Shown: in pieces, positions 3,741-24,176 of the stretch
Layout of the letters: every line of letters begins with the position of its first letter
How positions within the stretch are numbered: the first letter of the stretch is position 1
Source: Promethearchaeota archaeon
GTDB lineage: Archaea; Asgardarchaeota; Lokiarchaeia; Sigyniarchaeales; SOKP01
Assembly (NCBI GenBank): GCA_048941265.1
Contig: JBHLNT010000057.1
Coordinates: forward strand, 1-24,176
DNA: 24,176 bases
Direction: 5' to 3'
The notes under the pieces: model-generated
The model's input: the letters and a program-made list of their open reading frames with translations, nothing else
Database searches by the model: none
Told to the model about the DNA's origin: nothing
Program-made: the position numbers and the translations under genes

Positions 3741-4673
3741 ATGAGGAAATCTTTAAAGATTTTATTTGAATTAATAATTTTCATAATAATTGTAGGAATC
3801 GGATACTGGGTATATTTTTATTCTGGATTAAATCAGTTCCTAATTAACTTAATACTCATAAATATCTTTGTTTATTTGCTGAGAACCATTTTAATAGGAT
3901 TATCAAATATAATAGTTAAATCAAGATATTTTAGATATACCTTTGCTCTTATAGTTAATGTTATTTGGGTAGCATTTATTTTTTCTTTGCTACTGTTCAT
4001 ATCGCCAACTTTTACCATTGCAATCATCTCATTCCTCTTAATAGCAATTTCATTAACCTTCTCTGATATTATAAATAATATTGCTTCCGGAATAATTTTG
4101 ATTTCAAAAGAAGATGTTGAAATAGGTGATTTAGTCGAGATAAACAATATCCAAGGAATTGTCCAAGAAATTAATTTAAATTACACTATAATAAAGGAAT
4201 TGGATGGTGTCTTAACATACATTCCAAATAAAAATGTGTATAATGCATCGGTAGTAAAATTTACCCATAGGAGAGTAAAGGAGTTAGAATTGTTCAAAGA
4301 TAGAAAAGATATAAAAAAGAATATCAAAGAGTTTAGTAAATTAATAACTAAAGGAGAGAGAAGGACAATTTTTACTAAAAGTGTTGAGATTCTCTCAACA
4401 ATAAATCCTGAGAATCTCGATAATCTCCTCTCCCCAGTGTTTGATAAATATGAGCATCTTTTTGGGCAAAGACCAGATTATTTAGTCGATACAACTACAT
4501 TTGATCGTTTAAGGATAATCTTAGTAATAATGGCAAAATCTCCTAATTTGGTTTTAGAATATATTGATGCCTTCTTAAGAGATATTCTATATAAATTATA
4601 TCCAAATGAAATTTTCATAGGGTGGAGATTTGGTGAGCAGAGTAATAGTAAAACAAATATAGGTGGTGAATAA
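3741..4673 (+). CDS. MscS-family mechanosensitive channel protein (paralog 1)
   Basis: N-terminal TM helices, then NNIASG and the MscS middle beta-domain pattern IGDLVEINNIQGIVQEINLNYTIIKELDGVLTYIPN. Confidence 0.88.
   Translation: MRKSLKILFELIIFIIIVGIGYWVYFYSGLNQFLINLILINIFVYLLRTILIGLSNIIVKSRYFRYTFALIVNVIWVAFIFSLLLFISPTFTIAIISFLLIAISLTFSDIINNIASGIILISKEDVEIGDLVEINNIQGIVQEINLNYTIIKELDGVLTYIPNKNVYNASVVKFTHRRVKELELFKDRKDIKKNIKEFSKLITKGERRTIFTKSVEILSTINPENLDNLLSPVFDKYEHLFGQRPDYLVDTTTFDRLRIILVIMAKSPNLVLEYIDAFLRDILYKLYPNEIFIGWRFGEQSNSKTNIGGE
4662..4669 (+). promoter_or_regulatory. Shine-Dalgarno-like GGTGGTGA coupling the two MscS genes
   Basis: Lies in the last codons of paralog 1, 9 nt upstream of the ATG at 4679. 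GGTGA is the common archaeal SD core. Confidence 0.55.
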
Positions 4674-4678
4674 AAGAA

Positions 4679-5554
4679 ATGGCAATATTTATCACCGATT
4701 TTGAAGCTGCTGTATATATTATAATTATTGGTATTATTTTATATATCCTAAATAAAATGGTATTTTTTATTCTTTCTCGAATAAGAAGAGTCTCGGCTAA
4801 ACAAGAAAATAAAATTGGCTTTGTTCTGAGTTTAATATCATTTATTATCATTGTATATCTTATTATAGAGGGATTTCCCGCTTTTGAGATGATCGATCCG
4901 ACTTATGCAGCAATCCTAACCGGTGCAATTAGTACCTCCTTAGCATTTGCTTCCCGAGGTATTTTTTCTAATATTGTTTCCGGAGTCGTGCTTATGATAA
5001 TTAGTCCAGCTGATGTAGGTGATATAGTTAAAATTAAGGGAATTAAGGGAATTATTCGACAAATAACTCTAACAAATGTAATAATTGAAACATTTGAGGG
5101 ATTAATTGTACAAATATCTAACACAGAAATAATCAATTCTACTATTATAAATTATACTAAGAGAATAGGACGAATAAAAGATTTCGAGGCATTTAAAAGA
5201 GAAGTAGCATCCCCTCAAGTTACTGGATTAGCCCGGATTGAAGAAGTCGATAAAAATTATCTAAGAAAAATGTTCGATGAAGCATCAAAAACACGTAATC
5301 CCATTATTCATAAATACACTTTTAAAATGGAATTTTCGTATAAAGCTTTTCGTTCCAAATTAGCCGAAGTGGAAAACTTATGTGTTAAATATAGAGAAGT
5401 TTTTGGTGCTAAGCCATGGTATGGTATTGTTGATTTCGGAAATAAAATTATGGTTAAATTCAGTATTTTAACATTAGACTCAACGACAATTATCAATGAC
5501 CAACCTAAATTCGCTAAGGACCTGTATAAAATCATTTTTCGACAAGGTAATTAA
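4679..5554 (+). CDS. MscS-family mechanosensitive channel protein (paralog 2)
   Basis: Three TM segments, SNIVSG, and the beta-domain pattern VGDIVKIKGIKGIIRQITLTNVIIETFEGLIVQISN...INYT. Starts 5 nt after paralog 1. Confidence 0.88.
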   Translation: MAIFITDFEAAVYIIIIGIILYILNKMVFFILSRIRRVSAKQENKIGFVLSLISFIIIVYLIIEGFPAFEMIDPTYAAILTGAISTSLAFASRGIFSNIVSGVVLMIISPADVGDIVKIKGIKGIIRQITLTNVIIETFEGLIVQISNTEIINSTIINYTKRIGRIKDFEAFKREVASPQVTGLARIEEVDKNYLRKMFDEASKTRNPIIHKYTFKMEFSYKAFRSKLAEVENLCVKYREVFGAKPWYGIVDFGNKIMVKFSILTLDSTTIINDQPKFAKDLYKIIFRQGN

Positions 5555-14387: not shown

Positions 14388-15866
14388 ATGAGTACTCATT
14401 TTATTCACGAGATATTAAACCCTAAAAGTGTTGCAATCTACGGTGCGAATAATTCTGGAGCATCTTTAGCTTGTATTCAACTAATGAATATGATAATCTC
14501 GAAATATGACGGAAAAATTTATCCCATTCATTTAAGTCTCGATTCAGTAATGGGTTTTAAAGCTTATAAGAATATTACTGAGGTTCCAGAGACTCCGGAT
14601 CTTGTTATAATCGTTTTACCACCTAAAATTGTCCCTGAAATCTTTAAAGAATGTGGTGAAAAAGGAGTGAAAAAAATTATCCTCATTTCTGGAGGATTTA
14701 GAGAATTATTAGATGATAGAAACAATACACTTACAGAGGAAATTTGCGAAATTGCAGATAAATATGGGATTCGATTTATTGGTCCAAATTGTTTAGGAGT
14801 GTTTAATAATTGGTTAGATCCTGAAAATGAGAAAAAAGCATTTAATATCTCTATCTGGGAAAAAATAAAGCGTAATAAATTTTCAATAGCTTCTCAAAGT
14901 GGAACTCTATCTAGTCACATCTATTTTGATCCAGAGAATTTAGATTTAGGTTTAGGAAAATCAATCTCGGTTGGTAATGAAGCAAATATTGATATAGTAG
15001 ATTGTTTGGAATATTATAAAGATGATGATCAGACTGAAGTGATTGGACTCTATATTGAAGAAGTTAAACAAGGTAAAAGATTTTTAGAATTAGCCAAAAA
15101 AATTACACCAAAAAAACCCATTATTGCCATATATGGTGGGGGTTCAGAGGCTGGAAATCGCGCTTTAACAAGTCATACTGGTTCAATTGGCGGTAATGGT
15201 AAAATTTATGAGGTGGTATTTAAAGAATCTGGTATTATACAAACAGATAAAGTTCAAGATTTCTTAGATATTGCTCAAGTATTAATAAGAGGGATACTGC
15301 CAAAAGGGAATAGATTAGGGATCATAACTAACTCCGGAGGTCCTGGAGCTATGCTTGCTAATAATGCCGAAAAAAATGGATTAATTGTACCAGAATTTTC
15401 AGATGATTTACAAGAAGAATTAAAAAGTATGTTACCACCTATAGCCAGTTTTAAGAATCCGGTAGATGTAACGTTTGATATGAACCTTCCTTATTATTAT
15501 ATTACATTACCAGAACTTTTAATGAAATCTGGTGAAGTGGATGTTTTAATTCAATATGGGGTGGTAGGTTTTCAAGATGTAATGGATCATTATCTTAAAT
15601 ACGAGCATATTGCTTCCCATGCTGATTTTAAAAAACAAAATCTTGAAAAAAGTGCAGAGTTAAACAAAAAATTAATTCAACCAACGATCAATAATTCATA
15701 TAAATATTCAGTTCCAATCTTTCACATCAGCCCCCAGAGTTTTAATAGTTTTTGGTCTAAGAAGTTAAGGGAAAATGGTGCCTTTCTTTTTAGGTTATGG
15801 GATAGACCCATTCCATGTATTAAGAAATTATGCGAGTATGCCGAATTTCGAAGAAAACAGACTTAA
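14388..15866 (+). CDS. acdA: ADP-forming acyl/acetate--CoA ligase alpha subunit (paralog 1)
   Basis: PKSVAIYGA, GPNCLG, SQSG, GNEANID, phospho-His motif SHTGS, TNSGGPG and NPVD. No ATP-grasp domain. Confidence 0.9.
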   Translation: MSTHFIHEILNPKSVAIYGANNSGASLACIQLMNMIISKYDGKIYPIHLSLDSVMGFKAYKNITEVPETPDLVIIVLPPKIVPEIFKECGEKGVKKIILISGGFRELLDDRNNTLTEEICEIADKYGIRFIGPNCLGVFNNWLDPENEKKAFNISIWEKIKRNKFSIASQSGTLSSHIYFDPENLDLGLGKSISVGNEANIDIVDCLEYYKDDDQTEVIGLYIEEVKQGKRFLELAKKITPKKPIIAIYGGGSEAGNRALTSHTGSIGGNGKIYEVVFKESGIIQTDKVQDFLDIAQVLIRGILPKGNRLGIITNSGGPGAMLANNAEKNGLIVPEFSDDLQEELKSMLPPIASFKNPVDVTFDMNLPYYYITLPELLMKSGEVDVLIQYGVVGFQDVMDHYLKYEHIASHADFKKQNLEKSAELNKKLIQPTINNSYKYSVPIFHISPQSFNSFWSKKLRENGAFLFRLWDRPIPCIKKLCEYAEFRRKQT

Positions 15867-15916: not shown

Positions 15917-16138
15917 ATGACAAAAACGGTCTCTAATTCCCAGGTAGCAGTATTAAATGTTAAAGCATGTTTAGGATGTGGGAAATGTATTGATAAATGT
16001 CCAATGGAAGCTATACCTCAAAATCTGATTGGACTTTTTTCACATTTACTTAAAATAGATAAATCTAAATGTACTGGATGTGGTGAATGTATTTCATTCT
16101 GCCCTCATCAGGCGATTAAATTAGTAAGATTAACTTAA
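15917..16138 (+). CDS. 2x[4Fe-4S] ferredoxin
   Basis: Two CxxCxxCxxxCP motifs, CLGCGKCIDKCP and CTGCGECISFCP. Confidence 0.92.
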   Translation: MTKTVSNSQVAVLNVKACLGCGKCIDKCPMEAIPQNLIGLFSHLLKIDKSKCTGCGECISFCPHQAIKLVRLT

Positions 16139-17571
16139 ATATTATCAAACTTACATTTATTAGAAAACCGATAAATATTATATAATGCCTTAGCGGCAAG
16201 TTGTTCATTCGGATGTATTGAAATCCCTTTCTTATTCATATCATTTATTATTTTAGGAACATTTTTTGCTCTTATCTGAATAAATCGTTTGATATTACCA
16301 CTGAAAGAATCCCGCGAAACATTCACATCTATGCCAGATACAAGAGCAATTGGTTTAGAAATTTTTTCTTGTAATTTAATTAAGTCCTTGTATCGAGGAT
16401 TTAACATCGACAACCAAATAAGTATCATATCAACGTTAGGATCCATTCCTACTATTTCATATGCGTTTTTCTCCAACATTGGATCAAATTGTACTTGAAG
16501 ACTTAAATCTATAGGGTTTGAAATACTTGAACCGAATTCAGGTATTATTTCTTGGAGTTTCAATTTTGTGTCATTTGTCAATTCTGCCAACTTTAGATTA
16601 TTCATCTCACAAGCATCAGCCGCCGATACGGCGGGTCCTCCTGGTCCTGAAAGAATAGCTACTCGACAATTTCTTACTGGAATAGGATTGATAAATGCCT
16701 GGATCATACTAATCATTTCTTCCAAATTATAGACCCTGATCACCCTATATTGATCAAATACATTATTCCATAACTTATTATTTCCACATAAAGACCCTGT
16801 ATGTGAGTGAGCTGCTTTTGAACCGGCGGGCGTGGCCCCAGCCTTCCAAATAATTATAGGTTTTTTTATTTTTTTTACCAAATTAATGAATCTTCTTCCA
16901 TCATTAACCCCTTCCATATAACTGGCTATGATCTTAGTGTTAGGGTCATCTCCGAGATATTCTAAAAAGTCATTGAAACTCAAATCAATACCATTACCAT
17001 AACTTATGGCTTTTGAAAAAAATATTCCTTTCAACATAGCTAAAAAACCCATAAGATTGGCGATTGAACCACTCTGGCTAACCAATCCTAACGGACCCGA
17101 TTGTGTCGGTAAGGCTGGAAAGAACGAAAGTTTTGAACTGGGACAATATAATCCCATGCAATTTGGTCCAATTAATCTTATTTTATATTTTCGAGCAATT
17201 TTCAATAATTCTTCTTCAGCACTTTTACCTTGTTCATTTTTTTCACCAAATCCAGCTGAGAAAATTATTACTGCTTTCACTCCATTTTCCCCACATTCAA
17301 CAATGATATCTCGAACGAATTTAGGATGAGTGGAACAGATCACTAAGTCTACAGGCTCTCCAATAGATTTCAAATCTGAGAAAACAGGTATTCCCATAAT
17401 TTTAATATTAGGTTCAGATACTCTAGGATTTATGATAAATATCTTAGGAAATTCTTGATCAATAAAACCTTGTAGTAAAATATTTCCCAAACCACCTTTC
17501 CTACTCACACCATATATTGCCAGAGACTTAGAATGGAAAATATCATCAATTTCTGAGAATAACTCATTCAA
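16135..17571 (-). CDS. acdA: ADP-forming acyl/acetate--CoA ligase alpha subunit (paralog 2)
   Basis: SKSLAIYGVS, GPNCMG, SQSG, GNGID, SHTGS, SGPGGPA and NPIDL. TTG start. Its stop overlaps the ferredoxin stop (TTAA, 16135-16138). Confidence 0.9.
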   Translation of the reverse strand: MNELFSEIDDIFHSKSLAIYGVSRKGGLGNILLQGFIDQEFPKIFIINPRVSEPNIKIMGIPVFSDLKSIGEPVDLVICSTHPKFVRDIIVECGENGVKAVIIFSAGFGEKNEQGKSAEEELLKIARKYKIRLIGPNCMGLYCPSSKLSFFPALPTQSGPLGLVSQSGSIANLMGFLAMLKGIFFSKAISYGNGIDLSFNDFLEYLGDDPNTKIIASYMEGVNDGRRFINLVKKIKKPIIIWKAGATPAGSKAAHSHTGSLCGNNKLWNNVFDQYRVIRVYNLEEMISMIQAFINPIPVRNCRVAILSGPGGPAVSAADACEMNNLKLAELTNDTKLKLQEIIPEFGSSISNPIDLSLQVQFDPMLEKNAYEIVGMDPNVDMILIWLSMLNPRYKDLIKLQEKISKPIALVSGIDVNVSRDSFSGNIKRFIQIRAKNVPKIINDMNKKGISIHPNEQLAAKALYNIYRFSNKCKFDNI

Positions 17572-17934: not shown

Positions 17935-18483
17935 GTGGATCATTTAGGGGATAATATAAACGTGGATGAAGAGAATTGGCATTATGTAAAAATTTCGAAA
18001 ATTGATAACAAAATAATTAAAAAATTAGTCAATAATTTAAAATTAAATCTATCTGAAGAGTTTTTTCTCTCCCTTGAAAGTTTATTAAAATTAGGTAAAA
18101 AAGCAGAACCAGAGCTTACAGCTGCAATAAACGAAATGGATGAGCAACATAAATTCAAAAAAGAAATATTTAATGCCCTAATAAAGCATATAAAAACAAA
18201 ACAATCTAAGAATCCAAAGATTTTTCAGTTATATCATCCAGATTTCGAAATTAGAGCCCGGGCAGTAATGGAATTAGGCAAAGAAGATAATATAAATAAT
18301 TTAAAATTTTTAATGCCATTGGTTATGGACCCAGATGATTCAGTACGATGGGCAGTTATTAATTTATTAATCAATAAGTATCTAAACAACCCATCAGTTT
18401 ACAAAAAGCTAAAGAAACATGTAGAAAAAGAATCAAATCCCATAATTCGTAAAAAATTAATAAAAGTCTTCGAAGATTTCTAA
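17935..18483 (+). CDS. HEAT/PBS-lyase-like repeat protein
   Basis: Repeats LYHPDFEIRARAVMELG, LVMDPDDSVRWAVINLL and KESNPIIRKKLIKVF. GTG start. Confidence 0.8.
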   Translation: MDHLGDNINVDEENWHYVKISKIDNKIIKKLVNNLKLNLSEEFFLSLESLLKLGKKAEPELTAAINEMDEQHKFKKEIFNALIKHIKTKQSKNPKIFQLYHPDFEIRARAVMELGKEDNINNLKFLMPLVMDPDDSVRWAVINLLINKYLNNPSVYKKLKKHVEKESNPIIRKKLIKVFEDF

Positions 18484-18484
18484 T

Positions 18485-18736
18485 CTAATAATATCTTTTA
18501 TCATTATCTAATTCATGATGAGGTTTACGCTTTTCATCCTTAAATTCCTGAACTTTCTGTCGAAATTGCTTGCGTTTCTCTACAATTCCAAGTCCACTGT
18601 TGTCTAATAATTCTTGTAATTTTACACTATACTCCTCAACAGAAAGTTTAAGATCGAAAATGGAATCAAAATCAACTTTTTGAGCTAATTTTTCTTCATC
18701 ACTAATTTTTCTCTCTTCCCTCTCATCTTCACTCAT
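18485..18736 (-). CDS. Small, highly charged hypothetical protein
   Basis: ORF from ATG 18736 (MSEDEREERK...), or TTG 18763. E/K/R-rich and helical-looking. Convergent with the HEAT gene, 1 nt apart. Confidence 0.65.
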   Translation of the reverse strand: MSEDEREERKISDEEKLAQKVDFDSIFDLKLSVEEYSVKLQELLDNSGLGIVEKRKQFRQKVQEFKDEKRKPHHELDNDKRYY

Positions 18737-18943
18737 TCGAACATCATCCGCTTTTCTTAACAATCTTGAATAATAGTTATTTTAATATTATGGAATTACG
18801 TTATTCAAAATATAGGTTTTTATCCTAATATAATCGAATATAATTCTTAAGATTTATCTTAGAATTAAGGCTTTAAAATATTTTCCATTGGTTCGAGATA
18901 GTTCTTAAAATGAGTACCTCACTTTAATAATATTTATAACCCT

Positions 18944-19534
18944 TTATTGCCGTTTGGTTTTGTTATAGTCTTTTCTAATAATGTTAGATAAACCATTCCT
19001 TAAAGTATATAAACTGATGTCGATTCTATTATTTTCTAGAGTAATATTAGGGACTCTATTTTTTTGCTCTTGTAAAATATTATTAAAATCAAAGTCTTCG
19101 TCCTCGGGGGAGCTAAAAAAAATATGATATAACGTACCTATTTCAAACTCTTCTATTTCACTTTTAAACAAATTTCTTAGGATTTGGTCATATCTCTGAA
19201 AAAATAGAAAAATGCAAGCATCTACTGCAATTTCATAATCCGGAAATTGGGCATTCCCCAAGTATTTAAGATAATGAGAGCGCATTTTATTCGCTCTAAT
19301 CCATTCAAAAGCAAAGTCCAAGAGTTCTCGTTGTATATTTAATTTATCCTTATAATATTCAAGGACAATGAGGACCTCTTGCATTGTAGTACCTATTGAT
19401 TGACCGTTCAGGAATTTAGCTATAATTTGAATAGGAGTAAAACCTTGAAATTGGTTGGCAATTCTTTCATAATAACTATATAATCTATTTTTGTCAATTT
19501 TAAAGATTAGTATATATTCTATATCTTCAATCAT
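18944..19534 (-). CDS. Uncharacterised array protein B, copy 1 (all-helical, ~196 aa)
   Basis: Paralog of the ORFs at 20773-21831 and 23040-23624, sharing KID..RL...YERI.NQ, KFL..QSIG, LD.AFEW.R, AQ[FY]P, D.CI..FF..YD, LY..FFS and TLR.GLS..I..DY. ATG at 19534 follows GGTGGTGA. Confidence 0.88.
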   Translation of the reverse strand: MIEDIEYILIFKIDKNRLYSYYERIANQFQGFTPIQIIAKFLNGQSIGTTMQEVLIVLEYYKDKLNIQRELLDFAFEWIRANKMRSHYLKYLGNAQFPDYEIAVDACIFLFFQRYDQILRNLFKSEIEEFEIGTLYHIFFSSPEDEDFDFNNILQEQKNRVPNITLENNRIDISLYTLRNGLSNIIRKDYNKTKRQ

Positions 19535-19538
19535 GGAT

Positions 19539-19546
19539 TCACCACC
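19539..19546 (-). promoter_or_regulatory. Shine-Dalgarno-like GGTGGTGA overlapping the stop of A1, for B1
   Basis: Minus strand reads ...GGG TGG TGA ATCC ATG. The same 8-mer occurs at the MscS junction. Confidence 0.55.
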
Positions 19547-20600
19547 CAAAATCAAGGTCGTTTTTAATTTTTTCTAGTTCTTCATCTGAAAGCGTATCCC
19601 AATTATCGAATGGGTTGATTTTTGAGTTGATTTTAATGATAGATTTTTCCATATTCTTATTCTTGTCTAAAATAAATCTTAATTGTTTCTTGTAGAAAGC
19701 TAAATTATGTGCTTCTTTAATAAATTCATTTTCTGAAATCAAAATGACACCAAAACTCCGTTTTGTCTTATCTTCCAAGAGAAATTCTTCTAAATAAATA
19801 ACTTTTTTTTTTTGATTGCTTAACCTTATTAATCTGATATTAGGATAAATGCTAGTTTTGTTGAATAAAGTTAATGTTTCATTTATTCGATTTTCATAGT
19901 AAGTTGGTAATATAGACATTACATAAAAAGAAGGAATAAAATCTAATGAGGCAAATCTTAGTGGATCGTCTACATCAAATGTATAAAGATTTGAAACGAC
20001 ATTAGCGATCTTTGGTTCAATAGTATTTCTCCTTTCAATGAATCCTACACAGCTATATTTTTGTTGCTCCTCCCAATACATTTTCCTTGCGGATCCAAGA
20101 AAATAATTAATCACATTAACTCCACGTTTTAATTCTTTGCGGATAAAATCTTGAAACTCAAAATTCTCTCCCTTAATTGATTCGTTGGCAATTTTCCCTT
20201 GAACGATACCTGGATGGATGAAAGTTGTGACTAAATTATGGATAATTTTAACATCTTCAGTATAGGGAGATCCAATAATAGCAAAAAGGTTTGAAACTCC
20301 CCCTTCAGTTTCAATAGAGGAATTTACACTAAAGAAAGATTGTAACAAATCCACATCAATTGTCCTTTCTTGATGTTGAGATAAGAAAGCTTCAAGTAAT
20401 TCGATTTTCCAACCTTTTCCAATTTCTATTTTGGAAGTCAAAAATAGGGGTCCTAAAAACCGTAATGAAAGCATTTTTAATTGTTTACGATTTAATTCAG
20501 TTAAATCTTTTTCCACACTCTCTGATAATTTAATATTATCAAATACTATGTTATTCTCATCTGAGTAGAATAGCCCTAAGATTAGATCTGTAGTTTTCAT
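19539..20600 (-). CDS. Uncharacterised array protein A, copy 1 (353 aa, alpha/beta, possibly double longin-like)
   Basis: Full-length paralog of 21839-22870 and 23647-24176, sharing ILGLF.SD, FLGP.FL, LQSFFS.NSSI, GVSNLF..IGSP.TED, RK.YWE.Q, DPLR, IPS[FY]Y.M.ILP.YYEN.I..TL.LFNKTS, YLEE[FY] and S[FY]G.IL. The fold is inferred only. Confidence 0.88.
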   Translation of the reverse strand: MKTTDLILGLFYSDENNIVFDNIKLSESVEKDLTELNRKQLKMLSLRFLGPLFLTSKIEIGKGWKIELLEAFLSQHQERTIDVDLLQSFFSVNSSIETEGGVSNLFAIIGSPYTEDVKIIHNLVTTFIHPGIVQGKIANESIKGENFEFQDFIRKELKRGVNVINYFLGSARKMYWEEQQKYSCVGFIERRNTIEPKIANVVSNLYTFDVDDPLRFASLDFIPSFYVMSILPTYYENRINETLTLFNKTSIYPNIRLIRLSNQKKKVIYLEEFLLEDKTKRSFGVILISENEFIKEAHNLAFYKKQLRFILDKNKNMEKSIIKINSKINPFDNWDTLSDEELEKIKNDLDFGW

Positions 20601-20772
20601 TAGAATTGTTTTGTTAATGATCTGATATAGTTAAATCGCCTATATATATCATACTAATTTAAATCATATTTTAAAGTTCCTAAGGTTTAGAAAAAACCAA
20701 ATTAGTTTTTTATTTAAAATTTTAAATTGAAGTTTAAAATACCAAAAATCATTTATTACGTAAACTTCGTTT

Positions 20773-21831
20773 TTATTTAAATAAATTGCTATAAAAATCT
20801 TTTAAAAAATCAGTAAGTACCGGTTTTAAATCATTTACCCAAGCAGCTCCATCTAGTCGTTTATTTTGATTTACTGAACGAAATTCTTTGATTGAGTCTG
20901 AAATATTGTTTTTTAGAATTTCAATAGAATAGGATGATTTTATCCTTTCAGTTAGTCCTAAGTTGATGTATTCAGCCAAATTATTAATTAATAAAGGTTC
21001 GAATTCCTCGAAAATGTAAAATGTTCCAAATTTAAAATATGAATTTAAGAAATTAGTAATCGAACCCTCCAATGTTTTTGGTTGGATTTCTAACTTATTA
21101 AAACAATAAGTCTTAATTATTCTTTCGATGTTAGTACCATTAAATTCGCAAGAAGTTTCAGGAGTCTGCGTAATCTGGGTCGAAATTTCAGAATATTTCG
21201 TTTTTTCTTCTTCTCTTCTCGCAAATAATACATTTTCATAATCCTTTACTATAATATTAGATAATCCTTCTCTTAATGTCATAATTCTTGTATCTATTTT
21301 AAGAGAACCAGAGTAATGGGTTGGAATATTATGGATATGGTGCTGTATTATATCTTCTATTATAAGATTCTTTTTATCGAAAGGACTAAAAAATATCTCA
21401 TAAAGCGCACTAAAATTATATTCACGAAGCTCTTTTTTAAACAATTTCCTAATAAAATTATCATAGTCTAAAAAAAACCGATAGATGCAATCATCAATTG
21501 CTAAACATAAATCATTATTTGGGTATTGTGCTCTTATCAGATATTTTTTGTACTCTAATCGTATTTTTTGAGCCCTTAACCATTCAAAAGCTAAATCCAA
21601 TAATCTTTTTCCAGCGAAAATTTTATCTTCAAAATATTTTAAGGTATTATAAACCTCATCAAATGATGCACCAATAGATTGATTGTTTAAAAATTTTGTA
21701 ATGGTATTAATTGTCTTAGTTTCTCCTTTACTCTGATTTTTAATTCGTTCATAATACTTTAATAAACGCTCTCTATCGATTTTATAGATGTCTTCATATC
21801 TCGTATCATTCATATTATTCAAAATTTCCAA
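20773..21831 (-). CDS. Uncharacterised array protein B, copy 2, with ~150-aa C-terminal extension
   Basis: Residues ~15-198 align with B1 and B3 and are followed by a further ~150 aa. TTG start at 21831 or ATG at 21813. Confidence 0.88.
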   Translation of the reverse strand: MEILNNMNDTRYEDIYKIDRERLLKYYERIKNQSKGETKTINTITKFLNNQSIGASFDEVYNTLKYFEDKIFAGKRLLDLAFEWLRAQKIRLEYKKYLIRAQYPNNDLCLAIDDCIYRFFLDYDNFIRKLFKKELREYNFSALYEIFFSPFDKKNLIIEDIIQHHIHNIPTHYSGSLKIDTRIMTLREGLSNIIVKDYENVLFARREEEKTKYSEISTQITQTPETSCEFNGTNIERIIKTYCFNKLEIQPKTLEGSITNFLNSYFKFGTFYIFEEFEPLLINNLAEYINLGLTERIKSSYSIEILKNNISDSIKEFRSVNQNKRLDGAAWVNDLKPVLTDFLKDFYSNLFK

Positions 21832-21838
21832 ATATTTT

Positions 21839-22870
21839 TCAATTCTTACTATTATCGAGAATTGCTGATATATGATTAAGACCCTCGTCAGTTTGAGTTT
21901 CCCACTTCTTAAGTTTAAAATTCACATTGAAGAGTTTTAAAATTTCACTTAATTCTTTATTCCCATCTAAAATTAACCTTAAATTCTTTTTAAAGAAAGA
22001 AAATTTTTTAGGTGTACTTAATATTTCATCAACCTGTACTAAAATTGCCCCATAACTTCTCTTAGTTTTAGCTTCAATATGAAATTCTTCTAAATAAATT
22101 ACTTTTTTAGTTTGATTACTAAGATCAATTGATCTAATATTAGCGAATACGCTAGTCTTATTAAACAGTTTTAAAGTCTCACCTATTAGATTTTCATAAT
22201 AATCTGGTAAAATACACATGATATAATATGAAGGTATTAAATTTATCGCCTTTTTCCTTAAAGGATCATTTTCATCATATGTATATAAATTTGATACTTT
22301 ACTTCTTTCTGTAATAATTCTTTCAATTAAACCTACACAAGAGTAGTTATGTTGTTTTTCCCAATAAATCTTTCGTGTAGATCCAAGAGAATAATCTATA
22401 AGATGAAGCCCTCGAATTAATTCTGATTTTATAAATTTATGGAAGAGAAATTTATTCCCTAAAAGATCTTCATTCACAATTTTACCTTGTAGTATGCTCG
22501 GATGGACAAATTTTGTTAGGATGTTATAAATATCTTTAATATCTTCGGTGTGTGGACTTCCGATTAAAGTAAATAGATTAGAGACTCCTTCTTCGGACTT
22601 TATCGATGAATTAAGACTAAAAAACGATTGTAAAATATCAGAAAGCCTCCCCTGATAATGAGACAGAGAAGATTCAATTTTCTCAATCTTCCAGGTATCT
22701 CCATTGCTACTTGCTGCAGTTAAAAAAATAGGCCCTAAAAACTTATACGAGAGCATATTAAGTTGATTTTTACTCTCTTCAGATAAATTTTCAGAAAATT
22801 TGATATTATCATAAATTAAATTATCTTTATCAGAAAAGAACAGTCCCAATATTCTTTCGTCGTCTTTCAT
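21839..22870 (-). CDS. Uncharacterised array protein A, copy 2 (343 aa)
   Basis: Colinear with A1 from the N-terminus (ILGLFFSDKDNLIYDNIK) to the C-terminus (WETQTDEGL). Confidence 0.88.
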   Translation of the reverse strand: MKDDERILGLFFSDKDNLIYDNIKFSENLSEESKNQLNMLSYKFLGPIFLTAASSNGDTWKIEKIESSLSHYQGRLSDILQSFFSLNSSIKSEEGVSNLFTLIGSPHTEDIKDIYNILTKFVHPSILQGKIVNEDLLGNKFLFHKFIKSELIRGLHLIDYSLGSTRKIYWEKQHNYSCVGLIERIITERSKVSNLYTYDENDPLRKKAINLIPSYYIMCILPDYYENLIGETLKLFNKTSVFANIRSIDLSNQTKKVIYLEEFHIEAKTKRSYGAILVQVDEILSTPKKFSFFKKNLRLILDGNKELSEILKLFNVNFKLKKWETQTDEGLNHISAILDNSKN

Positions 22871-23039
22871 TTGAAGATTATTATAATTAAAGTCTTTTTA
22901 TCCCTAATTTGCTAGTTAATTAATCAATAAATTGTATAATTTTAAGTTTAAGTTTTTAGAAAATGTACTTTTTTTTTATAGAACAAATTTTCTTTAGTAT
23001 TTTACACTTTCTCACGAATTTTATTTATAAAAATGAATT

Positions 23040-23624
23040 TTATTTAACATAATCTTCTTTTATAACTTCTGATAGGCCATTTCGTAAGGTAATTATACTT
23101 GTATCGATTCTTTTAGTTTCTTTAAAAAAAGTAGGAACGATGCTTTTATGTTCTTCTAGAACTTTAATTATATTGATATTTTTACTGTCTGGGCTAAAAA
23201 ATGTTTCATAAAGCGCACTTATTTCATACTCTTTTATATCTTTTTTAAGTATTTGCCTAAGTCGCTTATCATAATGTAGGAAAAAGAGAAAAATGCAATC
23301 ATCAATAGCTAAATCTAAATTCGGATACTGTGCTTGATTAAGGTGTTTTTTATATTCTAAACGGATACTTTGACCTCTTATCCATTCAAAAGCTAGATCT
23401 AACACACTAACATTTTCGCTTATTTTCTCTTTATAATAATTAAGAACCATTAAAACTTGACCATATGAGTTTCCAATAGATTGGCTGAGTAAAAATTTTG
23501 CTATTATTTCAGTTTGAGATAAGTCGGGCGATTGATTTCTAATTCTTTCATAGTGGGTATTCAAACGTTTCTCATCTATCTTATAAATTTGATGAAATTC
23601 TTTATTTTCCATATTAATACTCAT
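23040..23624 (-). CDS. Uncharacterised array protein B, copy 3
   Basis: All B motifs are present. ATG at 23624 or 23612 preferred over TTG 23657, which overlaps A3. Confidence 0.87.
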   Translation of the reverse strand: MSINMENKEFHQIYKIDEKRLNTHYERIRNQSPDLSQTEIIAKFLLSQSIGNSYGQVLMVLNYYKEKISENVSVLDLAFEWIRGQSIRLEYKKHLNQAQYPNLDLAIDDCIFLFFLHYDKRLRQILKKDIKEYEISALYETFFSPDSKNINIIKVLEEHKSIVPTFFKETKRIDTSIITLRNGLSEVIKEDYVK

Positions 23625-23646
23625 TATTTTCAAATTTTTACTAGAT

Positions 23647-24176
23647 TTAACAATCAAAGCATTTTTTTATATTATCTAAATCTTCTTCTGATTCAGTAGG
23701 CCAACTTTCGAATACGAAATTTTCATTTATAATGAAAAGAACATCTCTTAGTTCCTTATGGGCGTCTAAAACACTTCTTAAATTTCTTTTAAAGAAGGAT
23801 AAATTTTTACCTTCCTCAATATTTAGAACCTCAGGTATCAAGATAACACCATAGGACTTCTTGATACCCTCTTCAACCACATATTCTTCTAAATAGAGAA
23901 CTTTCTTTTCTTGATAACTCAATTTGATGGTTCTAATATTTGAAAATACACTTGTTTTATTAAATAATTTAAGCGTATCATTAATTAAATTTTCATAATA
24001 TTCAGGCAAGATGCTCATAACATAAAACGATGGAATATATGGTAAGACATATTTCCTTAAAGGATCCTCTCTATCAAATGAATAAAAATTAGAGATTCTG
24101 TGTTTTTCATCAATGATTCTCTCTATAATTCCAATACAGTAATATTTTTGCTGTTCTTCCCAATAAACTTTTCTTG
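23647..24176 (-). CDS. Uncharacterised array protein A, copy 3, 5'-truncated by the window edge
   Basis: The frame stays open beyond the ORF-track start (24018) to the window end. Manual translation RKVYWEEQQKYYCIGIIERIIDEKHRISNFYSFDREDPLRKYVLPYIPSFYVMSILPEYY matches A1 and A2. Confidence 0.88.
   Translation of the reverse strand, partial: RKVYWEEQQKYYCIGIIERIIDEKHRISNFYSFDREDPLRKYVLPYIPSFYVMSILPEYYENLINDTLKLFNKTSVFSNIRTIKLSYQEKKVLYLEEYVVEEGIKKSYGVILIPEVLNIEEGKNLSFFKRNLRSVLDAHKELRDVLFIINENFVFESWPTESEEDLDNIKKCFDC

Follow-up and report, generated by a model that had tools for sequence, protein, structure and literature searches.

Several described regulators of small GTPases are heterodimers of longin or roadblock type: Mon1-Ccz1, the Nprl2-Nprl3 pair of GATOR1, folliculin-FNIP and, in bacteria, MglB. 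Longin domains have a beta-beta-alpha-beta-beta-beta-alpha-alpha order of secondary structure elements. In other systems tandem PAS/GAF modules are combined with a separate partner (DhaR(N) with the helical protein DhaL, PDB 4lrz; FixL; LOV-PAS), and two-component and toxin-antitoxin genes have expanded as pairs. Here we compare these systems with an array of paired genes, which we call A and B, from a Promethearchaeota archaeon (GenBank assembly GCA_048941265.1, contig JBHLNT010000057.1). The stretch that we analyzed, referred to below as the window, is the entire 24,176-bp contig of a 5.0-Mb genome bin (361 contigs, 91% complete), and its GC content is approximately 27-33%. In our estimate there is a probability of about 0.8 that A and B form a heterodimer and that the array is a series of paralogous pairs.

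Like the longin and roadblock heterodimers, A-B has two subunits and its predicted A domains follow the longin-type order. Ras, Rag-like or Roadblock genes adjoin A-B in 3 of 11 locus contexts, and NPRL2 of GATOR1 appears among the weak Foldseek rows for A (probability 0.47). In contrast to those heterodimers, A-B has no Pfam longin or Roadblock match, and the B model is all-helical rather than a second longin or roadblock domain. The PAS/GAF systems are similar in other respects. In the A model a PAS order of strands and helices is followed by long helices, and 25 of the 44 Foldseek rows listed for A against PDB are PAS/GAF/Cache-type sensors by their entry titles (4lrz_H among them; all rows E > 1e-3). 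As in DhaR(N)-DhaL, the partner is helical, and the predicted docking site of the all-helical B lies on the helices after A domain 1. However, no PAS/GAF match to A is significant, B matches neither DhaL nor any PDB chain, and A-B is confined to one Asgard family and lacks a kinase, DNA-binding or other output domain. Finally, as in the expansions of two-component and toxin-antitoxin pairs, A-B was duplicated as a whole unit and its partners co-diverge. It differs from both in having no histidine kinase, receiver, toxin or antitoxin domain, and from toxin-antitoxin pairs in that its proteins are much larger and its locus is chromosomal, syntenic and under strong purifying selection.

Linkage and distribution of A and B

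B followed A on the same strand in 31 of 32 loci (11 of the 12 fetched by A hits and all 20 fetched by B hits). All 16 A-positive genomes were also B-positive, and none of 20 listed A-negative genomes was B-positive (for 12 of these, B is expressly given as absent). The first-pass annotation of the window had proposed that A and B are partners duplicated as a unit. This linkage, the matching presence of the two genes, their congruent trees and a complex model that passed its controls (see below) all agree with that proposal.

A was present in 16 of 40 genomes of its own GTDB family and in none of 161 genomes from 26 other families of the phylum; B was present in 65 of 120 genomes of the family, representing 11 of its 13 genera. 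In the genomes searched, A-B was found in only one family of Asgard archaea. The databases hold at least 223 relatives of A, all of them nameless or annotated as “hypothetical protein” and all from Asgard bins. The names given by submitters to the sources of these homologues span Loki-, Hermod-, Thor-, Hod- and Odinarchaeota, in contrast to the single GTDB family of the genome searches, and are probably loose labels. Intact full-length orthologues with 86-91% identity (P0002-P0005) were noted for the A1/B1 copies. The module occurs in one to three copies, and in several genomes two or three types are present, scattered over different sites.

Organization of the array

All genes from position 18485 to the contig end lie on the minus strand. 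They are listed here in the order of transcription, followed by the convergent gene that marks the downstream end of the array.

23647-24174, minus strand: A3, the C-terminal 175 codons of an A gene, open at the contig end
23040-23612, minus strand: B3, core only, 190 amino acids from the ATG at 23612 (open reading frame (ORF) 23040-23657, open upstream)
22871-23039, minus strand: AT-rich spacer between B3 and A2, 169 nt
21839-22870, minus strand: A2, 343 amino acids (A-family hidden Markov model (HMM), E 1.9e-161)
20773-21831, minus strand: B2, 352 amino acids, with a core (21235-21813) and the extension ext1 (20779-21147)
20601-20772, minus strand: AT-rich spacer between B2 and A1, 172 nt
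19539-20600, minus strand: A1, 353 amino acids
18944-19534, minus strand: B1, core only, 196 amino acids from the ATG at 19534 (ORF open to 19555)
18764-18943, minus strand: spacer between B1 and C, 180 nt, with in-frame TAA stops
18485-18763, minus strand: C, a 92-amino acid ORF homologous to the ext2 module of the longest B proteins
17935-18483, plus strand: HEAT-repeat gene (Pfam HEAT_2, E 2.9e-9), a convergent flank that we do not claim as part of the system

The A3 fragment matched positions 168-341 of the A-family HMM (E 3.8e-78) and is 84% identical at the amino acid level to the first A protein of the array in G215, a genome of the same genus. The B core HMM matched B3 (E 2.6e-86), B2 (E 1.3e-81, with ext1 at E 3.9e-51) and B1 (E 1.1e-79). 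The ATG at 23612 is probably the start of B3, giving a product of 190 amino acids like the database protein P0121, and B1 probably starts at the ATG at 19534.

The first-pass annotation described at least three intact copies of a two-gene module. There are indeed three units, but only A1 and A2 are complete A genes, A3 being cut by the contig end. Likewise, the cores of approximately 190 amino acids that it assigned to B were recovered, but B2 also carries ext1. Its other readings of the array held up well: none of the A3, B3, A2, B2, A1 and B1 frames contains an internal stop, the spacers it put at about 170 bp measure 169 nt and 172 nt, the A and B motifs it quoted are visible in the family sequences, and its manual estimate of approximately 48% identity between B1 and B3 compares with 47.6% over 191 columns by BLASTP. 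The corresponding values are 46% for B1/B2, 52% for B2/B3, 54% for A1/A2 and 53-54% for the A3 part against A1 or A2. The three spacers align at 64% mean column identity, which is weak and uninformative evidence in DNA so AT-rich. A scan for sigma-70 promoters and terminators was given no weight since it is inapplicable to an archaeon.

An exhaustive HMMER search of 1.84 billion cluster representatives with the B profile returned only 41 proteins at E <= 1e-3, and for 39 of these E was 1e-10 or lower. By length there are three classes: core only (approximately 190-205 amino acids), core plus ext1 (335-365, the B2 type) and core plus ext1 plus ext2 (420-445, nine representatives). The core comprises approximately 190 residues, the conserved extension ext1 about 125-150 and ext2 about 60, and none of the 41 representatives is longer than 445 amino acids.

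By ending the array at 18944, the first-pass annotation missed the third gene, C. BLASTP matched C to the ext2 tail in all nine of the long B forms (best E 3e-14), the ext2 HMM matched C at E 2.8e-18, and phmmer against 190 fetched proteins gave 13 matches, all of them to B-family members. Stand-alone ext2 ORFs also follow B in G223 (L031, same genus) and in G202 (L037, another genus). On account of these ext2 matches and stand-alone ORFs, C belongs to the system, whose downstream boundary is 18485 rather than 18944. C shares its reading frame with B1, and a B profile match at 18770-19528 reads through five TAA codons. The data on C suggest, but do not prove, that it arose by loss of ext1 from a long B. 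The common frame may go back to a long B that was formerly uninterrupted, or it may reflect chance (1 in 3 for the frame).

Extent and integrity of the array

No further A or B copy was found elsewhere in the assembly. In G215 (L032) the A3-type unit is the first after the flank genes, directly following a TIM-barrel gene, and the A2 type comes next. Another contig of the window's own genome, C357, begins inside the flank gene c4 (a truncated c4 orthologue, described below) and continues into an HpaB-like gene. Because of these three observations the array most likely consists of exactly three units, and the gap between the window and C357 most likely holds the rest of A3, a Ras gene and the start of c4, and perhaps the TIM-barrel gene as well. 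The suggestion of the first-pass annotation that the array continues off the window is therefore probably wrong beyond the missing half of A3.

One could argue that these ORFs are not real genes, or that the array is an artefact of assembly, since the DNA is AT-rich (approximately 27% GC) and the contig break falls inside the array. We consider this highly improbable. More than 220 A homologues and 41 B cluster representatives come from independent data, the ratios of nonsynonymous to synonymous substitution (dN/dS) are far below 1, and the predicted folds are confident. The array is not an artefact, because its junctions are bridged by Logan contigs of other public runs and because the same gene order occurs in two same-genus genomes, G215 and G223. 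HEAT-C-B1-A1-B2 is spanned in run X1 (4446 nt, 0 differences) and in run X2 (3054 nt, 6 differences); X2 also bridges B2-A2 (523 nt) and X1 bridges A2-B3-A3 (1471 nt). X1 may be the source sample.

Co-divergence and selection

We built maximum-likelihood trees from 33 A-B pairs, including paralogues from single genomes. Of the well-supported splits in the A tree, 13 of 14 were found in the B tree, as were 11 of 11 in the reverse comparison, and there was no strongly supported conflict. When labels were shuffled, the trees had 0.11 splits in common on average and at most 2. A1 falls in a clade (support 98) with sequences from G240, G252, G132, G109, G104, G202 and G207, which represent three other genera. 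A2 and B2 group with G223, G215 and a clade of genus g2 (support 99 for A2), while B3 groups with the B3-type proteins of G215 and G223 (support 98-99). Of all the copies B1 evolves fastest; its terminal branch in the B tree measures 0.96.

Because the paralogue types are common to several genera, because genomes carry two or three of them, and because the A and B trees are congruent, the duplications must predate the genus splits and have involved the whole A-B unit. That they are old had also been the view of the first-pass annotation. Compared with G215, dN/dS was 0.18 for the A3 part, 0.11 for B3, 0.13 for A2 and 0.08 for part of B2; the value for C against the ext2 ORF of G223 was about 0.09, with dS near saturation. 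All of the copies tested are under purifying selection.

Predicted structures and the A-B complex

The A1 model, based on an alignment of 67 sequences, had a mean predicted local distance difference test score (pLDDT) of 85.9 and a predicted template modelling score (pTM) of 0.87. It consists of two alpha/beta domains, each with the order beta-beta, helices, beta-beta-beta, helix, helix. By DSSP, domain 1 comprises strands at 7-13 and 20-25, four short helices within 27-56, and strands at 65-75, 88-98 and 101-111; domain 2 comprises strands at 182-193 and 202-206, helices, and strands at 251-262, 265-276 and 279-289. Long helices at 117-167, after domain 1, form a hairpin. Read from secondary structure only, both domains have the order of a PAS/GAF-like five-stranded antiparallel sheet. 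The B2 model is all-helical (pLDDT 91.7), and its fold has no detectable relative. The products have near-neutral isoelectric points and are expected to be soluble; no 19-residue window exceeded 1.15 on the Kyte-Doolittle scale in the six A and B products, consistent with the earlier remark that they have no transmembrane segment.

An A-B interaction was predicted. The A2+B2 complex model scored 0.80 (0.81, 0.80 and 0.78 in separate runs) as compared to 0.00 for the best of three controls, with contact agreement of at least 81% between runs and a partner pLDDT of 80. Of 80 solved complexes, 58 attained a mark of 0.80, as did 2 of 110 mismatched pairs; these counts apply only roughly, since we used our own alignments. 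The complex model supports, although it does not show, binding of A to B.

In this model the hairpin of A joins the B helix that carries the A-x-D-x-C-I motif and the P-T...T-L-R segment. The predicted interface on A2 covers residues 117-161 and includes the invariant Q128 and the near-invariant P124, G129, R153 and G154. On B2 it covers 103-121 and 168-184 and includes the invariant D113, the near-invariant I116 and P170, and variable positions. Variable residues lie at the edge of the conserved predicted interface.

Comparison with characterized families

The first-pass annotation had regarded A and B as unrecognized families, and this assessment is upheld by searches of Pfam, NCBIfam, PADLOC, PHROGs, PDB and Foldseek, which returned no consistent or significant match. 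Pfam, NCBIfam, PADLOC and PHROGs gave no consistent family for A, B or C, and neither did Pfam for 67 A and 43 B alignment members. A1 and A2 had no Pfam family at E <= 1, and there was no PAS or GAF family among the 67 A members. PDB sequence profile searches with A and B produced only chance-level rows. At E <= 1e-3 Foldseek gave no match for A or B in PDB, nor for B in the viral structure library BFVD, and neither BFVD nor PHROGs contributed a match. The protein Atlas offered no usable lead for A or B (scores below 0.9; its own B model has a pLDDT of 0.45). We found no fused, longer forms of A, in a search that is weak evidence on this point.

In a PADLOC-DB 2.0 scan of eight proteins there were no hits to the models of one system, and A and C had no hit at all. 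The isolated matches (B1 to Cas6b, E 7.4e-5 over 63 residues; B2 to PDC-S32, E 0.005; P0156 to HEC-01B, E 0.004) involve three different models, none common to the B paralogues. Among type II toxin-antitoxin domains, only a ParE-like toxin matched, in 1 of 43 B members (E 0.03). No nuclease, protease, NTPase, TIR or pore-like domain was recognized in A, B or C.

Several candidate relationships were rejected. B is not supported as a TetR-family regulator: TetR_N was absent from all 43 members, the Foldseek rows to SlmA and CecR had E values of 4-9 and template modelling (TM) scores of 0.10-0.20, and the Atlas row rests on the poor model mentioned above. A weak BLASTP match of the B2 extension to the N-terminus of A2 (E 0.028) was not upheld by hhalign, which gave A against ext1 a probability of 0.1%. 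The hhalign probability was below 2% in each of the comparisons of A with c4, B core with ext1, and c4 with Roadblock. It was 0.1% when the A alignment was compared with 14 Roadblock ORFs, of which 11 are encoded in the window's own genome and 3 in the loci, and A had no Pfam Robl_LC7 match. We found no paper describing the A or B families, though supplementary Asgard protein-cluster tables (PMC12962969, a 2026 structural-clustering preprint) may list them. A and B resemble no characterized protein and are without an assigned function.

Chromosomal sites of A-B

The main site has a conserved order: an HpaB-like gene, c4, a Ras-family GTPase gene, sometimes a xylose-isomerase-like TIM-barrel gene, A-B, the convergent HEAT gene and an amidohydrolase gene. 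The HEAT family follows B in 12 further loci, or 13 with the window, and G223 has the order B3, A2, B2, C, HEAT. The same site is also found empty. In the A-B-negative genome G057 (L053, G057:C66) the HEAT gene adjoins the Ras gene across a 279-nt gap, and in the A-B-negative genome G019 (L054, G019:C127) the order is HEAT, TIM barrel, Ras; no trace of A or B was detected at either empty site at E <= 1e-3. Since empty sites exist and c4 is nearly universal in the family, the site itself is stable and A-B is an accessory module that is present or absent there. A-B is also found in about ten other contexts.

At the main site A is transcribed divergently from the Ras gene, which is paired with c4. 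The Ras gene (179 amino acids, Pfam Ras E 9.4e-46) is followed by c4 on the same strand at L019:10421-11930 (plus strand) and in 11 further loci. c4 encodes 321 amino acids, matches no Pfam family and is a single-copy gene present in 101 of 120 family genomes; the copy of the window's own genome lies at C357:4-672 (L055). By eye, its N-terminus resembles a winged helix. Ras-c4 is a conserved pair of a GTPase and an uncharacterized partner.

The first-pass annotation recommended looking for a small GTPase or roadblock gene beside the array. Such genes are present in related genomes, but only in 3 of 11 contexts. In a clade made up of G217 and genus g4, A-B is preceded on the same strand, at a distance of 139-203 nt, by a Roadblock/LC7 gene (Pfam E 4.4e-17). 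In G202 (L035, G202:C2:30000-44000), a Ras gene and an ORF are directly upstream of A-B on the same strand, with three Gtr1/RagA-type genes within approximately 4 kb. GTPase or Roadblock genes occurred within 1.5 kb in 3 of 11 contexts as compared to an own-genome background of 0.078 (P 0.049), and within 3 kb in 4 of 11 (P 0.034); the 11 contexts were grouped post hoc, after inspection. The window's own genome holds 82 Ras-like and 14 Roadblock-like ORFs, 96 altogether. Profile comparisons related none of the small neighbours c51, c58, c57, c128, c102, c154 and c67 to Roadblock, Ras, A, B or c4, and c186, a 121-amino acid ORF in L050, is antisense to a Roadblock gene.

Other features of these neighbourhoods were seen in single or few loci. 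The surroundings of one A-B copy in L035 and in L038 (G207:C84) form a GTPase-rich cluster with three Gtr1/RagA-type genes (E 1.7e-18 for the one tested) and a Ras-like gene, and a 126-amino acid ORF in it resembles a response-regulator receiver by eye. An 834-amino acid TPR-TIR protein (TPR_12 E 5.6e-22, TIR_2 E 7.8e-19, ThsB_TIR E 5.7e-6) is encoded directly upstream of the A-B copy of G252:C1, in the same direction (L042:3076-5580, plus strand). Downstream of the copy in G206:C47 lies an IS605 OrfB/TnpB-like gene (L046:8385-9575, minus strand; OrfB_IS605 E 2.3e-16, Cas12f1-like TNB E 4.6e-12), the sole mobile-element gene seen beside the module.

A model for A-B and its alternatives

We propose that A and B together form a soluble heterodimer in the cytoplasm. 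A would be a single globular protein with two PAS/GAF-like domains joined by a helical hairpin, and B an all-helical core with up to two add-on modules, of which ext2 would here be the separate gene C. B would dock on the hairpin of A. The whole unit would have been tandem-duplicated before the present genera split, and three diverged units plus C would have been kept here. We computed the linkage, co-inheritance and co-divergence of the two genes, the purifying selection on them, their confident folds and an interface that passed its controls; binding in the cell, sensing and everything downstream we infer. A may serve as a sensor or an adaptor and bind a ligand or a partner through its PAS-like domains; the signal would go through the hairpin to B, the variable tail modules of B would engage downstream targets, and the paralogous pairs would be separate channels. 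We hold this mechanism tentatively and put its chances somewhat below even. A link to small-GTPase or Roadblock signalling is possible, though weakly supported.

Several observations weigh against the proposal. One A copy (378 amino acids; L028:568-2734, minus strand, G186:C256), the only one of its kind, has no B. The ORF in its place encodes a lysine- and glutamate-rich, coiled-coil-like product of 307 amino acids; as a candidate diverged B it was rejected, having no similarity to the B core, ext1 or ext2. Conservation at the predicted interface does not stand out from that of the rest (0.69 versus 0.64 for A, 0.61 versus 0.61 for B). No sequence or structure search links A significantly to PAS or to any sensor family, the best PAS row in Foldseek being 7jl6_A (probability 0.54, TM score 0.35), and we can point to no residues that bind a ligand, no output domain and no target. 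Moreover, the module is missing from about half of the family genomes, a polymorphism at a fixed site that would be expected of accessory or conflict genes no less than of a core signalling system.

One alternative is a lineage-specific role in small-GTPase control, with A-B as a regulator or effector platform (a guanine-nucleotide exchange factor (GEF), GTPase-activating protein (GAP) or scaffold). On the model of the longin/roadblock heterodimers of eukaryotes, A would contribute two longin-like platforms and B a helical partner, with different pairs serving different members of the expanded set of Asgard GTPases. Its neighbours lend themselves to this interpretation: the Ras gene beside A at the main site, the Roadblock gene in the G217/g4 clade, the Ras and Gtr1/RagA-type genes in G202, and the enrichment within 1.5 kb and 3 kb. 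So do the longin-like order of the A domains and the weak NPRL2 row. On the other hand, the enrichment is borderline and its contexts were defined post hoc, the 96 Ras-like and Roadblock-like ORFs of the genome make chance neighbours common, and in 7 of 11 contexts there is neither a GTPase gene nor a Roadblock gene within 3 kb. c4 is present in A-B-negative genomes as well, so that there is no phyletic coupling, and the Ras-c4 pair is kept without A-B. Gene order is a weak guide either way, because, according to one paper, the GTPase genes of the cultured Asgard strain MK-D1 generally lie outside operons with their regulators (PMC10933270). The Roadblock profile comparison (probability 0.1%) also speaks against a relationship. 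In GAP longins (FLCN/NPRL2/SMCR8), according to one account, a GP motif lies at the start of the second strand or in the loop before it, beside an arginine finger (PMC12290439). In the 67-protein consensus of A, strands 1 and 2 are not separated by a G-P in either domain; a conserved G-P occurs only at G50-P51, after strand 2, and the invariant R190 in strand 1 of domain 2 has no GP beside it. We regard a GTPase platform as unlikely. We judge equally doubtful the more specific idea that A-B(-C) is a small-GTPase control module invented by Asgard archaea, with a tandem longin/PAS-like A locked to a new all-helical B. The unit would then have expanded into cognate paralogous pairs, one for each of several GTPases in the enlarged Asgard set. 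If true, the module would either have arisen in prokaryotes independently of the longin-based GEF/GAP heterodimers of eukaryotes, as a parallel to them, or be distantly related to them, and the B tails (ext1 and ext2/C) would act as targeting elements.

A housekeeping-type accessory complex, such as a two-subunit enzyme, an assembly chaperone or a structural element, seems about as improbable as GTPase control. It would account for the many invariant charged residues, which could form a candidate active or binding site; the invariant polar residues are T114, E115, Q134, R172, R190, E271, E272 and R308 in A and R23, Q27, K39, E76, R84, K89, D104, D115, R119 and E128 in B. Metabolic neighbours are found in several contexts (M29 peptidase, amidohydrolase, xylose-isomerase-like TIM barrel, HpaB-like), but none of them is common to the contexts, no cofactor, nucleotide or catalytic motif was recognized, and it is rare for enzymes to persist as three diverged pairs of paralogues that carry modular tails. 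Less probable still is a conflict system, either antiviral or toxin-antitoxin-like, that diversifies under pressure from mobile elements. The patchy occurrence of B (65 of 120 genomes), the filled and empty versions of the site, the variation from one to three copies over at least ten contexts, and the two copies beside the TPR-TIR and IS605 OrfB/TnpB genes are what such a system would predict. However, PADLOC gave no consistent match, PHROGs and viral structures gave nothing, and A, B and C have no effector-type domain. At 343-353 amino acids for A and 190-445 for B, the proteins are far above the typical size of type II toxin-antitoxin components, the dN/dS values of 0.08-0.18 give no sign of diversifying selection, and the neighbours are mostly metabolic genes in conserved synteny, with old paralogue types inherited along with the genera.

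Other genes in the window

Ordinary chromosomal genes fill the first 18 kb of the window. They encode a pyridine-nucleotide disulfide oxidoreductase, CorA, two MscS-like channels, an M29 peptidase, an AMP-binding ligase, an enoyl-CoA hydratase, GNAT acetyltransferases, a GH4 glycosidase, two CoA-ligase-like proteins and the small HEAT-repeat protein. The two MscS-type mechanosensitive channel genes (3741-4673 and 4679-5554, both plus strand) are in tandem, 5 nt apart. The genes at 14388-15866 (plus strand) and 16135-17571 (minus strand) are convergent paralogues with CoA_binding_2 and Succ_CoA_lig domains and resemble the alpha subunit of ADP-forming acyl-CoA synthetase.

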